In this document: positions 3,104-37,545 of the stretch, in pieces
How the letters are laid out: every line of letters starts with the position of its first letter
Position numbering within the stretch: the first letter of the stretch is position 1
NCBI GenBank assembly: GCA_963797095.1
Contig: CAWCNY010000002.1
Coordinates: 608,001 to 672,000 of the forward strand
Direction of reading: 5' to 3'
Length of the DNA stretch: 64,000 bases
DNA from: an uncultured Chloroflexia bacterium
GTDB taxonomy: Bacteria > Chloroflexota > Chloroflexia > QHBQ01 > JADMIH01
The notes under the pieces: model-generated
Told to the model about the DNA's origin: nothing
What the model saw: the letters and a program-made list of their open reading frames with translations, nothing else
Database searches by the model: none
Translations under genes and position numbers: made by a program

Positions 3104-3146
3104 TTCACCTGATTACACCCGATTTGTCACCCGCTGCCTGTAAGAT
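3104..3146 (+). promoter_or_regulatory. Phased-box promoter (eno)
   Basis: TTCACC(3104) TACACC(3114) GTCACC(3126), N9, TAAGAT(3141). Three boxes. Confidence 0.7.
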
Positions 3147-3244
3147 ATTTTCGGTTGCACACTGCACCTCTGCCCTGACTTCCCCACCGGCCAGGCCTCC
3201 GCTTGCGGCTCAACCTCATTCTTAGATCAGGAGAACACAATACC

Positions 3245-4552
3245 ATGCCTAGAATTGATTATGTACATGCCCGCGAGATACTCGACTCCAGGGGCAATCC
3301 CACCGTTGAAGTTGATGTGCGCCTTGATAATGGAGCTTTCGCTCGTACCGCCGTTCCTTCCGGCGCGTCCACCGGCAGCCAGGAGGCGCTTGAATTGCGC
3401 GATGGCGACAAGGGTCGCTTCGGCGGTAAGGGCGTGCTTCATGCCGTGTCCGCAGTGAACGAGATCATAGCCCCGGCGGTGCTTGGCAAGGAGGCTACCG
3501 AGCAGGCATCCCTCGACCGGGACCTGATAGAGCTTGATAGCACGCCCAACAAGTCGAAGTTGGGAGCCAACGCTATACTGGGGGTCTCGGTGGCCGTAGC
3601 CCGTGCGTCCGCAGCCGCCCAGGGCGTGCCTCTCTACCGCTACCTGGCGCACATGTCAGGCACCCCAGACGATGATCTCACCCTGCCCGTGCCTTTGCTC
3701 AACATCATGAACGGAGGCAAGCATGCTGCCCGCTCCACCGATTTGCAGGAGTTCATGATAGCGCCCCTTGGAGCCGGTAGTTTCACCGAAGCCTTGCGTT
3801 GGGCGTCCGAGATTTACCACTCTCTCGGTAAAGTGCTGAAGGAGCGCGGCCTGAGCACCCATGTGGGCGACGAAGGCGGCTATGCTCCAAGCCTGGGGAG
3901 CAACAACGAAGCCGTGGAGGTCATCCTGCGTGCCATTGAGCAGGCAGGTTACAGGCCGGGCGAGCAGGTCGCCATCGCGCTCGACCCCGCTGCCTCCGAG
4001 TTCTATACCGAAGGCGAGGGCTACCGGCTAGCAATAGAGGATCGCACCTTGTCAAGCGAGGAGATGGTGGAGTTCTACGCCGGTTGGGTGGAGCGTTACC
4101 CGATTATCTCCCTTGAGGATGGTCTGGCCGAGGGTGACTGGGCCGGTTGGAAGGTCCTCTATAAGAGGTTGGGCGACACGATACAGGTAATGGGCGACGA
4201 CATTTTCGTCACCAACCCAGCGATCATCCGCCGGGGCATCGAGGAGAGGGTTGCCAATTCGGTGCTCATCAAGCTTAACCAGATCGGCACGCTCACCGAA
4301 ACGCTGGAAGCTATCAAGCTCGCTCATAACGTCGGCTGGACGGCCGTCGTATCTCACCGCTCAGGCGAGACGGAAGACACCACCATAGCAGACCTGGCGG
4401 TTGGCCTCAACACCATGCAGATCAAGACAGGCGCGCCCGCTCGTGGCGAGCGTGTCGCGAAGTACAACCAGCTTATGCGCATCGAGGAGGAGTTAGGCGC
4501 AGCACATTATGCCGGGCGAGCAGCCTTCTCGCACATGTTGGTGAAACGATAA
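3245..4552 (+). CDS. eno: Enolase (phosphopyruvate hydratase)
   Basis: Motifs [38 protein letters not shown] and QIKTGA. RBS AGGAGA upstream of ATG 3245. Confidence 0.98.
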
Positions 4553-4569
4553 ATTAGAGCTGATAAACC

Positions 4570-4588
4570 GAGTTGCGAGTTGCGAGTT
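4570..4588. repeat. Heptamer tandem repeat (GAGTTGC)x2.7
   Basis: Read directly, just downstream of eno. Confidence 0.7.
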
Positions 4589-4628
4589 TTTGGTACAACC
4601 TCCCGCTTCCCTAAGCGGTCCTATTATT

Positions 4629-4682
4629 GCCACCGGGCGTTCACCTCCGTTTACCACCCGTTCCACCTTCATCCTTTAGATT
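4629..4682 (+). promoter_or_regulatory. Phased-box promoter (SQR-like gene)
   Basis: GCCACC(4629) TTCACC(4640) TTTACC(4650) TCCACC(4662), N9, TAGATT(4677). Spacing 11-10-12. Confidence 0.75.
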
Positions 4683-4713
4683 TGATACTGGAGGCCCACA
4701 CGTGGTAGTTGGC

Positions 4714-4781
4714 AGTCGGTAGTCGGTAGTCGGATCTTCGGGCTAAATACTCGTCACCCGTCACCCGTCACCCGTCACTCG
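4714..4781. repeat. Heptamer arrays (AGTCGGT)x~3 and (CCGTCAC)x~4
   Basis: Read directly in the leader of the SQR-like gene. Confidence 0.85.
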
Positions 4782-4808
4782 CTTCCTTCTCGCAATCAGA
4801 TATATGTC

Positions 4809-35223: not shown

Positions 35224-35264
35224 TGAATTCTCCTCATAAAATGCTATGCCAATTGTGTCTCAGG

Positions 35265-35684
35265 CTAGATGAACAGCGTAGTGCCGCCTTCGGCATCCTC
35301 CACGAATGTCGCGACGCCGGTCACTTCGCTGACCACCGGCTCCAGGTCTTCCAGCTTAATGTTGAACAACTCCATGGTGGCGCTGCACGCCTTGATAGTG
35401 ACGTTGCCAATCTCCATAGCCGTCTGCAAGGTCTCCATCCAGGGCGGTACATTCTTGGCCTTCATCATTTCCATGGCAGGCCCTGCATAATCCTCGAAAT
35501 CCTTGCTGAAGCGCTTATTGGTCTTCCAGTCGTCTTTGCGGAAGGCCACCACGCCCCAGAAGGTGAGGAACAGCGTTACTTCTTTGTCCATCGCCGCGGC
35601 CCCGCTCACCAGCGTCGCCGCCGCCACCAACTTGTCAACAGTGCCGGAAAAGAGCACTATCGAGAACTTCTCTTTGTCTTCCAC
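35265..35684 (-). CDS. DsrE/DrsE2-family sulfurtransferase
   Basis: Motifs SIVLFSGTVDK, LFLTFWG, KACSATM and GVATF. Confidence 0.9.
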   Translation of the reverse strand: MEDKEKFSIVLFSGTVDKLVAAATLVSGAAAMDKEVTLFLTFWGVVAFRKDDWKTNKRFSKDFEDYAGPAMEMMKAKNVPPWMETLQTAMEIGNVTIKACSATMELFNIKLEDLEPVVSEVTGVATFVEDAEGGTTLFI

Positions 35685-35786
35685 TTCTTTGGGTCCTTTC
35701 TAAGTCTTGCGCCCGGCGGCAGGCCATAGTTACTCACACCGCCGGTATTCTGCGGTATAGTCTCAATTTCCCATTGTCTGTCGTGT

Positions 35787-36368
35787 CTAGAACGTCAGGG
35801 AGATAGCGTTCTCGGCTGCGAACTCCAGGAATGTGGCCGCCCCGCCGATCTCCACACTATCGATCAAATCTTCCTTCTTGACTCCCATCACGTCCATCGT
35901 CATCTGGCAGGCTATCAACTTTACGCCCATCTCCTGGGCCATCTCCAACAGCTCGCTCAGCTTGGCGACGTTGGCTTTCTTCATCCAGTTGTTCATCATC
36001 GCGGTCGCCATGTGCGTCATACCCGGCAGCATACCGACTATATTGGGCACCGGCACCGGCATAGCGGGGTTGGCGATGGGGGCCACCTGGAGGTGGTCTG
36101 CCTTGCCCTTCTTCACGATGTCCAGTCCGTAGAACGTGAAGAAGATGGTAACTTCCATGTCCATGGCCGCTGCCGCCGTGGCGAGGATCAATGGCGGGTA
36201 CGCCAAGTCCAGCGTGCCGTGCAGCGCGATGATCGCGAGCCTGTTGGCGGTTTGTGGTTTTACAGGCTGTGGCTGCGGGTAGGGCCGAATCTCCGGCTCG
36301 CCTCTCAATTCCGCGACCAACTCGGACTCAATAGGCTTGGTGGTTGTGGGTGCTTCTTGGGTAATCAT
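35787..36368 (-). CDS. DsrE2-family sulfurtransferase
   Basis: Motifs GTLDLAYPPLILATAAAA, FFTFYG, IACQMTMDVM and GGAATFL. Confidence 0.92.
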   Translation of the reverse strand: MITQEAPTTTKPIESELVAELRGEPEIRPYPQPQPVKPQTANRLAIIALHGTLDLAYPPLILATAAAAMDMEVTIFFTFYGLDIVKKGKADHLQVAPIANPAMPVPVPNIVGMLPGMTHMATAMMNNWMKKANVAKLSELLEMAQEMGVKLIACQMTMDVMGVKKEDLIDSVEIGGAATFLEFAAENAISLTF

Positions 36369-36384
36369 TTGCAGCCTCCTATCG

Positions 36385-36630
36385 TTACTGCGCCTTCTGA
36401 ATGAAGAATATATACTTGCCGCCTTCCTGCTCCGACCCGATGAGGGTATGGCCGGTCTTTCGAGTGAAAGCCGCCACGTCGCTCACTGAGCCGGGATCGG
36501 TGGCGATCAACTTGAGCACCTGCCCCGCCTGCAACCCGTCGATAGCCTTCTTCGTTTTGAGGATCGGCATCGGGCAGGCCAGGCCGGTGCAATCGAGCAC
36601 CTGATCCGGAACCGTAGTTATCGTTGACAT
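36385..36630 (-). CDS. TusA-family sulfur carrier
   Basis: Motif LDCTGLACPMPI...ATDPGS. Confidence 0.93.
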   Translation of the reverse strand: MSTITTVPDQVLDCTGLACPMPILKTKKAIDGLQAGQVLKLIATDPGSVSDVAAFTRKTGHTLIGSEQEGGKYIFFIQKAQ

Positions 36631-36671
36631 CGTTCGTACTCCTTTCCGGCAGCGCCGGTAATATCAGCCTC

Positions 36672-37433
36672 TTAGCCTTCGATTATGCTCATAGCCGCGA
36701 TAGTGTGTAGCCTCTCCATGAGGTCGGCACGCTCGCGCGAGACCTCTTCAAGAGTATGAGCCATGCTTTTGAGCCAGCTTCCAAGCTGCGCCTGCTTGTG
36801 CTCGTCCAATGTCTGTATCGAGCAGGCAGCTTCGTTCAGTTCCTCAGGGTCAAGCCCGTATTCCCGGGCCAGCCGGGTGCACCGCCCCGCTTCTTCCTCC
36901 GGATCGGGCGTTTGCGTGTAGAATTGCCCCGCCACAATCGTGGCCGCCGGCGTGCCTTTCAACTCGATGGGTGCGCCGGCGTACTGCAACCCGGCGTGGC
37001 AAGTTGCGACTCTAGGCTCGGGGTCTATCCTGTTCGCTAGCCTGCGCCACGAAACGGCACACGCTTGCCGTCCCTTCTCGGTGGAGCGGATGATCTCACA
37101 GAAGCGGCACGAGTTGCTGATCTCGGTCAATGGCTCGCCGCCGAGGTCTGTCGTTACGGCCCCTACCTCGGTGATTTCACCGAACACATTCTGGATCATC
37201 TGGACGCAATGAATTGGGAGCGCCTGGGTGGCGTCGCTGTGGCCGTTGCCTCCCGATGCGGTCTGAGAAGGGCGCGAGCCGAAAAGAAAAGAAGTCACCT
37301 CAGTGCGCGAGAAGCGCCACTGGTGACCTATCTTCACCCCCGCAAGCCTGCCATCCTTGAGCATCCGGTAGACAGTAAGCCGGTCTACCTTGAGCAGGTC
37401 TTGTACCTCTTTGACCGTGAGTAGCTCTTCCAT
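36672..37433 (-). CDS. Transcription regulator: excisionase/MerR-like HTH (HTH_17) fused to a PocR sensor domain
   Basis: N-terminus LLTVKEVQDLLKVDRLTVYRMLKDGRLAGVKIGHQWRF; C-terminus CRFCEIIRST..G..AC, CHAGL and AGQF. Confidence 0.88.
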   Translation of the reverse strand: MEELLTVKEVQDLLKVDRLTVYRMLKDGRLAGVKIGHQWRFSRTEVTSFLFGSRPSQTASGGNGHSDATQALPIHCVQMIQNVFGEITEVGAVTTDLGGEPLTEISNSCRFCEIIRSTEKGRQACAVSWRRLANRIDPEPRVATCHAGLQYAGAPIELKGTPAATIVAGQFYTQTPDPEEEAGRCTRLAREYGLDPEELNEAACSIQTLDEHKQAQLGSWLKSMAHTLEEVSRERADLMERLHTIAAMSIIEG

Positions 37434-37491
37434 TCGTGACCTTTCCGCCGGGCTTGATATATCAACATATATCAGCATGTATCACAAACTC

Positions 37492-37545
37492 ACTATGACT
37501 CGGGGAGGTAAACGCCAGGGTTGCCGAGGGGTTAATAAAGGTGTC
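37492..37545 (-). promoter_or_regulatory. Phased-box promoter (HTH-PocR/sulfur-relay operon)
   Basis: Minus strand GACACC, TTAACC, GCAACC, TTTACC spaced 10-11-12, then N9, CATAGT. Confidence 0.7.

Follow-up and report, generated by a model that had tools for sequence, protein, structure and literature searches.

Tandem dimers of OmpR-family regulators that take the place of the -35 element are a textbook operator type. In the PHO-box promoters of actinobacterial and Bacillus PhoP and of E. coli PhoB, head-to-tail units recur with a phase of about 11 nt, each unit is thought to hold one protomer, and a core of two to three units can be extended; B. subtilis PhoP works on the same type of operator. 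The 11-nt units of the Streptomyces PHO box begin with GTTCACC (PMC2691820), and cryo-electron microscopy of Mycobacterium tuberculosis PhoP places tandem dimers on PHO boxes, where they displace the contact that sigma region 4 makes with the -35 element (PMC11825685). Here we describe a promoter layout of this kind that recurs nine times in a 64-kb stretch of DNA from an uncultured Chloroflexia bacterium (the window; G000:C2:608001-672000, within the source genome G000 of 6.02 Mb, 8 contigs and 58% G+C), and that is probably the operator of a low-oxygen two-component system encoded on another contig, comprising the OmpR-family response regulator RR-C5 and a kinase with a putative haem-binding GAF domain.

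The layout shares with PHO-box promoters the head-to-tail units and the phase of about 11 nt, and differs from them in that its spacing is rigid (11-10-12, then 9 nt) whereas the PHO box is uniformly 11, in that phosphate genes are not its targets and no motif is present at the PhoU/pst cluster, and in that the partner kinase is a soluble GAF protein, predicted to bind haem, rather than the membrane protein PhoR. The sensor recalls the DosS (DevS)/DosT-DosR system of M. tuberculosis: its GAF domain is a homologue of GAF-A that keeps the proximal His and the distal Tyr, and the kinase's relatives mostly resemble DosS and DosT in having two GAF domains. The DosR regulon also includes tandem-USP, CBS-pair (Hrp1) and PNPOx-type genes, and the DosR box is a palindrome. 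The system described here instead combines a HisKA kinase core (HisKA_3 in DosS and DosT), an OmpR-family regulator (DosR belongs to the NarL family), an operator of four direct repeats that replace the -35 element, and far more numerous metabolic targets (PFOR, VOR, hydrogenase, cytochrome bd); on sequence grounds, it is not a member of DosRST, and its sensor domain is related. ArcA, ResD and SrrA are likewise OmpR-family regulators that reset respiration and fermentation as oxygen falls. ArcA repeats lie on an 11-bp phase, and ArcA acts mostly as a repressor downstream of a membrane kinase that senses quinones, whereas the box position here would imply activation and the sensor is a predicted cytoplasmic GAF protein. 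The number of direct repeats bound by ArcA is variable (PMC3798270). The operator type and the sensor domain type are thus already known; what appears to be new is that such a system can be assigned in an uncultured lineage, how large the regulon is and what it contains, and that a DosT-like GAF domain is wired to an OmpR-type output via a HisKA core. A sequence-only reading that had drawn attention to the nine sites took the motif to be undescribed in this lineage, for which we indeed found in print neither a transcription factor regulon nor a description of the motif; the box itself, however, is essentially the Streptomyces PHO-box unit GTTCACC (PMC2691820).

Architecture, extent and conservation of the four-box promoters

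The nine sites were read individually and aligned on the -10. They share four hexamers (T/G)(T/C/A)nACC at offsets 0/11/21/33, followed after exactly 9 nt by TAnnnT or CAnnnT; the toast-rack site is the lone exception in spacing, with offsets 0/10/21/33, and two boxes are poor (eno box 1, GCTGCG, and box 2 of the PocR site, TAACCC). The sequence-only reading had described them accurately: all nine are present at the coordinates and on the strands it gave, its -10 hexamers are exact in every case (TAAGAT, TAGATT, CATACT, TACAGT, TACACT, TAGAGT, TACAGT, TAAAGT, CATAGT), the boxes are oriented to the downstream gene in 9/9 sites, the spacing of 11-10-12 or (once) 10-11-12 with the fixed 9 nt to the -10 holds in 9/9, and Pfam agrees with the gene names for the nine units. 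The sites are listed below by window position.

3093..3146, plus strand: promoter of eno (enolase Pfam match); boxes GCTGCG (poor), TTCACC, TACACC, GTCACC, 9 nt, TAAGAT; 29.3 bits, 33.3 in the refined model
4629..4682, plus strand: promoter of the SQR-like Pyr_redox_2 gene; GCCACC, TTCACC, TTTACC, TCCACC, 9 nt, TAGATT; 33.9 bits
6122..6175, plus strand: promoter of cydAB with ABC cydDC-like genes (Cyt_bd_oxida_I/II); TTAACG, TCTACC, TTCACC, TCTACC, 9 nt, CATACT; 30.6 bits
12910..12963, minus strand: promoter of the DUF4342 gene (DUF4342 match); ATTACC, GATACC, GTTACC, GTAACC, 9 nt, TACAGT; 27.8 bits
12996..13049, plus strand: promoter of the hydrogenase operon; TTCACT, TTCACC, TTCACC, TTCATC, 9 nt, TACACT; 32.9 bits
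22219..22272, minus strand: promoter of the toast-rack/LiaF-like gene; GCAACC, GTCACC, TACACC, TTCACC, spacing 10-11-12, 9 nt, TAGAGT; 33.7 bits with its own spacing, 21.1 with the standard one
22303..22356, plus strand: promoter of a ferredoxin, a VOR-type 2-oxoacid:ferredoxin oxidoreductase (three subunits) and an aminotransferase; GTCACT, TTGACC, TATACC, TCTACC, 9 nt, TACAGT; 30.8 bits
26655..26708, plus strand: promoter of nifJ (PFOR) and a DHO_dh-like gene; TTCACC, TTTACC, TTCACG, TCCACC, 9 nt, TAAAGT; 31.6 bits
37492..37545, minus strand: promoter of the HTH_17-PocR and TusA/DsrE/Pyr_redox_2 operon; GACACC, TAACCC (poor), GCAACC, TTTACC, 9 nt, CATAGT; 21.8 bits, 25.6 in the refined model

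The VOR-type promoter has a fifth box, GCAACC at 22293, and the highest refined score (51.6), while the HTH_17-PocR promoter is the weakest of the nine.

We scanned the genome with a position weight matrix (PWM) built from the nine sites only, consisting of three pooled boxes and the -10, with box 1 unscored. At thresholds of at least 16/18/20/22/24/26 bits, the true spacing (10-12-gap 9) gave 54/47/40/32/22/18 genome matches, compared with 32/19/11/5/3/2 for the best among 48 alternative spacing pairs and 24/15/9/5/2/1 for the best among 8 alternative gaps between the last box and the -10. At thresholds of at least 16/18/20/22/26 bits, real intergenic DNA contained 48/44/39/31/18 matches and dinucleotide-preserving shuffles (n=20) a mean of 1.65/0.5/0.1/0/0, so that the pattern is not equally frequent in shuffled intergenic controls (44 versus a mean of 0.5 at 18 bits or more). 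Using our own gene calls, which are crude and cover 82% of the genome, we found an intergenic position and, within 400 nt, the start of a gene on the same strand for 18/18 matches of at least 26 bits, 11/14 at 22-26 bits and 12/15 at 18-22 bits. Across the 44 intergenic sites of at least 18 bits, box 1, which the model did not score, is conserved (A 0.91, C 0.91, C 0.68), while the spacer columns hold about 0 bits, which argues against a copied repeat element. The same alignment shows a preference for G (0.64) and C (0.61) in the bases before the -10, an enrichment of G 7-8 nt past the -10, which is the expected start position, and ACCnnn in the columns where a -35 hexamer would be expected and is absent. 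The spacing, gap and column data support the earlier suggestion that the boxes stand in for the -35 and keep a constant distance to the -10, as in OmpR/PhoB class II promoters.

A refined 57-nt model recovered 63 sites of at least 18 bits genome-wide, spread over 6/8 contigs; 61 are intergenic, 54 of these with a same-strand gene within 400 nt, and within the window it returned exactly the nine sites and no extra. Block-shifted versions of this model still score true sites through the remaining blocks, and the calls therefore rest on the spacing, gap and shuffle controls. A strict pattern, KNNACC-N4-KNNACC-N6-KNNACC-N9-TANNNT, has 15 matches in G000, as opposed to 0-1 with altered spacings. 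The layout is thus real and marks a genome-wide set of about 60 promoters, nine of them in the window; the regulon had been proposed to be a 34-kb island of nine units, a scope that has to be widened to about 60 promoters on 6/8 contigs.

Conservation was followed in 40 genomes of the order (39 besides G000; families f1-f3) and in 151 genomes of the class, including f6, a family of another order; any count in which G026 and G032 figure draws on unpublished genomes. Among nifJ homologues, a correctly oriented motif promoter was found in 5/6 relatives' loci with upstream DNA, from two families (G015, G004 and G018 of the same genus, G020 and G028 of another family), with diverged spacers; the G030 locus, for which upstream DNA is present, has no motif promoter. 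The SQR-like gene homologues of G005, G015 and G004 and the hydrogenase homologue of G015 are likewise preceded by motif promoters. More generally, 10/25 strict sites of G015, G004 and G020 precede a gene whose best match in G000 stands first in a motif operon (twice each for the SQR-like gene, a 191-aa protein and a 461-aa protein, and once each for the hydrogenase operon, MaeB, FeoB and CBS), when about 0.6/25 would be expected by chance, given that 108/4278 called genes are members of target operons.

Within the order, strict matches number 12 in G015, 10 in G029, 9 in G018, 7 in G004 and in G030, 6 in G020, G039 and G027, 4 in G038 and 3 in G021; the remaining genomes, most species of the same genus included, have 0-2, and the reversed pattern used as a control has 0-1 per strand in every genome searched. 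By family, the strict pattern occurs in 15/24 genomes of f1, 4/5 of f2, 8/9 of f3 and 15/16 of f6, where up to 20 matches per genome are found and the boxes are mostly TTTACC. The other families of the class have it in 0/17, 0/9, 0/18 and 0/4 genomes, or in 1-2 genomes. The pattern is thus confined to the window's order and family f6, save one or two occurrences per family elsewhere.

Genes behind the promoters

The hydrogenase operon of the window contains Pfam matches to Fer4_22, cNMP_binding, NAD_binding_1, Oxidored_q6 and NiFeSe_Hases. Beyond the window, motif promoters precede a second pair of nifJ and DHO_dh-like genes, a malic enzyme-PTA (MaeB), a thiolase, an ADP-forming acetyl-CoA synthetase-like protein, two glutamate dehydrogenases, gcvTHP, AsnA, FeoB, a ferritin, three tandem-USP genes, a CBS-pair protein, a PNPOx-like protein and several membrane and surface proteins. 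Flavodoxin-domain proteins are encoded in four motif units, in two of them by the first gene, and a Zn-ADH is the second gene of a motif operon. The targets also include regulators, namely a LacI, a TetR, an ECF-like sigma factor, a small HTH_17 protein (L018) and an OmpR regulator with its kinase. This gene content is what would be expected of a low-oxygen, fermentation and stress programme, and it agrees with the low-oxygen/fermentation reading that had been put forward from the window alone (two PFORs, VOR, NiFe hydrogenase, cytochrome bd, flavodoxins, FeoB, ADH).

Several units deserve description in their own right. Two conserved targets have no Pfam match: the 191-aa protein (L017:4295-4867; G000:C1:75435-76010), which has a motif promoter also in G005, G012, G015 and G004, and the 461-aa protein (L025:3220-4602; G000:C1:187861-189246), which has one also in G015 and G020. 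The look-alikes of the latter in the protein atlas, which are leads only, are clusters of putative GTPases or cyclic 2,3-diphosphoglycerate synthases, with cobW on about one third of the members. At G000:C2:835245-835979 (L003, L007, L009), three motif promoters, two on the same strand and one divergent, lie within 750 bp; their genes encode a YbaK-like tRNA-editing-domain protein, an SPW-repeat protein together with a CAAX protease, and a membrane protein of 823 aa (weak Peptidase_M50 and Ig-domain matches). Within the hydrogenase operon, window positions 14251-14853 encode a 201-aa protein in which a cyclic-nucleotide-binding domain stands alone, with no DNA-binding domain detected. Tandem heptanucleotide arrays (for example CCGACTA x6.7 and ACTCGTC x11.1) fill long 5' leaders and intergenic gaps of regulon units, among other places at window positions 4569-4588, 4704-4733, 4752-4778, 25177-25300, 26784-26857, 30558-30650 and 33741-33818, and separate the sqr and nifJ promoters from their start codons.

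RR-C5, its kinase and other candidate readers of the boxes

The source genome encodes about 19 OmpR-family regulators. We compared 18 of them with all those of the motif-rich genomes G015, G004 and G020 and of the motif-poor genomes G007 and G012, and found four that are restricted to motif-rich genomes. The regulators at C3:1091856 and C4:561608, which occur in motif-rich genomes only, were set aside: they go with KdpD-like kinases (DUF4118-GAF) and adjoining permease genes, and no motif is present. RR-246 and RR-1006, discussed below, make up the rest of the four.

The candidate that emerged, RR-C5 (G000:C5:12244-12951), lies on a contig other than the window's. It has Response_reg (98.3 bits) and Trans_reg_C (92.5 bits) domains, with what we take to be the phospho-acceptor residues (DD near residue 8, D in LLDVNMPG, T in MLTARG and K in LVKPF), and its nearest solved relatives by sequence are RegX3, MtrA and M. 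tuberculosis PhoP. In G005, four motif sites (27.7, 24.7, 23.8 and 16.4 bits) form a 23-kb cluster around the RR-C5 orthologue; one precedes the SQR-like gene, and one separates a CBS gene from a divergently oriented OmpR regulator, which is that orthologue itself (83% identity). RR-C5 matches of 70-85% identity were found in 27 other genomes of the order, from all three families, together with one truncated copy and one 56% match treated as a paralogue. At 23/29 of the loci in other genomes, a divergent motif promoter (PWM score of at least 14) is located 79-467 nt upstream, which becomes 23/27 without a locus lacking upstream DNA and the paralogue-level match, and 20/24 if loci in the unpublished genomes G016, G026 and G032, to which 3 of the 23 belong, are also dropped. 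The neighbour behind this promoter was identified in four genomes and is the CBS-pair gene in G005, G012 and G015 and an acetyl-CoA hydrolase/transferase gene in G004.

The association extends to family f6, where the orthologue (59-67% identity) is the second gene of a PAS-kinase/regulator operon, followed in G083 by a lactate/malate dehydrogenase gene. In 4/4 informative loci, this operon has as its own promoter a strong motif site of 16.5-35.1 bits, in the same direction and 1336-1459 nt upstream of the regulator. Orthologues of at least 59% identity were found only in f1, f2, f3 and f6 (14/16 genomes of f6), which are the families with the motif. The recognition-helix stretch of RR-C5, DYLKTYISRLRKKL, is invariant in the orthologues of G004, G015, G020 and G012. 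A search for related loci returned three at orthologue level (76-84% identity), in Chloroflexia or Chloroflexota metagenome-assembled genomes (MAGs), and otherwise paralogues of at most 46%.

RR-C5 is followed by the gene for a soluble kinase of 435 aa with the order GAF-HisKA-HATPase (L167:5977-7284). The GAF domain of this kinase aligns end to end with DosT GAF-A (2vzw, chain residues 2-147) at an E value of 3.5e-36, and with DevS GAF-A at about 1e-32. Numbered after the DosT haem-contact residues listed in PMC4082495, the proximal His147 and the distal Tyr169 are conserved, as the H in GFPPNHPPM and the Y in GDLYLTDK. The kinase core is HisKA (PF00512) instead of HisKA_3, which fits an OmpR-type partner. 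Relatives of the kinase come in a one-GAF form (about 435 aa) and a two-GAF form (about 620-650 aa), most having two GAF domains before the kinase core; they are annotated merely as "GAF domain-containing protein" or "signal transduction histidine kinase," and the organisms named for them are Chloroflexia, Chloroflexota and one Thermomicrobiales MAG. The haem-GAF homology may serve as an independent pointer to gas or redox sensing.

Based on these data, we consider it probable that the four-box promoters are class II activator-dependent promoters bound by RR-C5, that its kinase carries a DosT/DevS-like haem-GAF domain, and that the pair acts as a low-oxygen switch. Several points weigh against this model. 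RR-C5 of G000 has no adjacent motif site, the CBS gene and its motif promoter being on another contig, and none is adjacent to the RR-C5 loci of G020, G017, G024 and one G029 copy. No RR-C5 orthologue was found in G018 (9 strict sites) and G039 (6), whose assemblies are 79% and 71% complete, and G012, G017 and G014 carry the regulator with only 0-1 strict sites, so that regulon size is not simply tied to its presence. RR-C5 is also not alone in tracking motif-rich genomes, as two other OmpR regulators, RR-1006 and RR-246, do so too. Moreover, the partner kinase in f6 has a PAS rather than a GAF domain, and the signal there need not be the same. The relatives are not independent, which means that the adjacency and distribution counts overstate the association, and DNA binding, activation and haem binding are predictions from sequence.

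The most serious competitor is a different OmpR regulator of an accessory anaerobic gene set, which would read the boxes and leave RR-C5 with at most a small core. It would be either RR-1006 (G000:C2:1005904-1006590), which comes with a HisKA kinase, or RR-246 (G000:C3:246103-246831), accompanied by a secreted protein and a HAMP kinase. RR-1006 orthologues (68-73% identity) occur in G018, G030, G004, G015, G020, G039, G029 and G037, the regulator being present in all eight f1/f3 genomes (G000 included) with at least 6 strict sites, and a site of 22.8 bits lies 78 nt upstream of the copy in G029. RR-246 orthologues occur in G015, G018, G004, G029, G020, G028 and G035, covering six of the eight motif-rich f1/f3 genomes; G035, which has RR-246 and no RR-1006, has 8 one-mismatch matches versus 0 in the control. 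The RR-246 operon is preceded by a motif in G000 (18.0 bits) and G015 (20.5 bits) and is the only OmpR regulator of G000 placed in this way, an arrangement equally compatible with RR-246 being a target in a cascade. However, genomes such as G005, G012, G034 and G013 have neither regulator at orthologue level (in G005 the best RR-246 match is 52%, and RR-1006 has none at E<=1e-75), yet they contain well-formed sites, always beside RR-C5. Orthologue-level RR-246 and RR-1006 were also missing from the f2 genomes G027 (6 strict sites) and G021 (3), the two f2 genomes covered by a search in which f6 was not included. In relatives, the motif is adjacent to RR-246 in 1/7 loci and to RR-1006 in 1/8, plus one weak 11.5-bit site, compared with 23/29 for RR-C5, and the recognition helices of RR-246 and RR-1006 differ from each other and from that of RR-C5. 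We thus regard this alternative as unlikely, although it is the strongest of those considered.

The sequence-only reading had named two candidates, an unlinked OmpR-type regulator, which is favoured by the adjacency of RR-C5, its co-distribution with the motif by family and its invariant recognition helix, and the local HTH_17-PocR protein (window 36675-37433, minus strand), which would bind the phased repeats cooperatively, like BldC, and activate the island. Multimer binding on direct repeats is described for BldC-type proteins (PMC5859096), the HTH_17-PocR gene lies in the island behind a motif promoter, as would fit autoregulation, and the second small HTH_17 protein (L018) is also within a motif operon. 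That promoter is nevertheless the weakest of the nine, the boxes in the -35 place with a fixed 9 nt to the -10 are an OmpR/PhoB class II signature, and a query with HTH_17-PocR found it in only 5/39 other genomes of the order (G018, G004, G001, G030, G020), and not in G015 (12 strict sites), G029 (10), G039 or G027. HTH_17-PocR is a target, not the regulator, and the proposal that it reads the boxes is extremely improbable. Equally improbable is the idea that the boxes are PHO boxes of a Pho regulon read by a PhoB/PhoP orthologue, even though a (G/T)TCACC box repeated about every 11 nt matches GTTCACC, the unit of the Streptomyces PHO box (PMC2691820): the annotated targets include no gene for phosphate uptake or for a phosphatase, and the 21 kb around the genome's only PhoU match, a pst-sized gene row with its own kinase and OmpR regulator, contain no motif of 8 bits or more. 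Hardly more credible is a last group of explanations, in which the repeats are read by a SARP/AfsR-type activator, whose OmpR-like DNA-binding domain is joined to further domains, or by an alternative sigma factor, or else form a dispersed element with no regulatory role. SARPs use heptamer repeats on an 11-bp phase that end 8 bp before the -10, and three long G000 proteins (333, 1098 and 1285 aa) have weak Trans_reg_C matches, but no motif site lies near their genes; a set of four phased boxes that comes to within 9 nt of the -10 is at odds with a sigma -35/-10 pair, and the information-free spacers speak against a copied element.

Proposed mechanism and other features of the window

From the architecture of the promoters, their statistics and conservation, the link between the motif and RR-C5 and the homology of the sensor, we infer binding by RR-C5, activation rather than repression, the nature of the signal and the stoichiometry, in the following model. 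The promoters would be of sigma-A type, with a TAnAnT -10 often preceded by GC and no -35 hexamer, and with four head-to-tail boxes of consensus tT(T/G)T(C/T)ACCt from about -60 to -22 relative to the predicted start. Low O2, or NO, CO or a redox change at the haem, would lead the kinase to phosphorylate RR-C5, which may then occupy the four boxes as two tandem dimers, such that the promoter-proximal protomer takes over the contact of sigma region 4 with the -35 and RNA polymerase is recruited to the -10. The approximately 60 promoters would thereby be turned on, inducing ferredoxin-linked and fermentative metabolism (two PFORs, VOR, ADP-forming acetyl-CoA synthetase, ADH, MaeB, thiolase) as well as H2 metabolism, a high-affinity cytochrome bd oxidase, flavodoxins, ferrous-iron uptake and USP/CBS/PNPOx-type stress proteins. 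RR-246 with its kinase, LacI, TetR, the ECF-like sigma factor and HTH_17-PocR might act as second-tier regulators.

If this model involving RR-C5 is right, a lineage known solely from MAGs gains a regulator, a likely signal and a set of about 60 target promoters, and the model predicts that, upon falling oxygen, these soil Chloroflexia turn to the bd oxidase and to a fermentation linked to ferredoxin, flavodoxin and H2. With the strict motif, the regulon could be read straight off other assemblies. A broader proposal, which we put forward tentatively and lean slightly away from, is that the whole low-oxygen programme of widespread uncultured soil Chloroflexia, in at least two orders, is under one rewired two-component system, a convergent counterpart of the mycobacterial dormancy regulon; if true, the motif would be a ready-made sequence marker for hypoxia responses in soil metagenomes.

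The window contains further features outside the four-box promoters. At 2939-3018 (minus strand) there is a fluoride riboswitch match below threshold (20.9 bits versus a gathering score of 34), which is probably the riboswitch named in the sequence-only reading. For the amylase gene, a consensus scan gives one promoter-like site, CTGGCA-18-TATACT, and TTGCAA-17-TACTCT can be seen by eye just beside it. The Acido-Lenti-1 RNA family has four matches above the gathering score (45-52 bits), on the minus strand (42504-42618, 53852-53897, 56658-56703), near genes for SLH-domain and cellulase-type surface proteins. Finally, a single open frame at 57266-58882 amounts to a complete NarL-type two-component system within one polypeptide, as it combines a HisKA_3 kinase and a receiver with a LuxR-type (GerE) DNA-binding domain.

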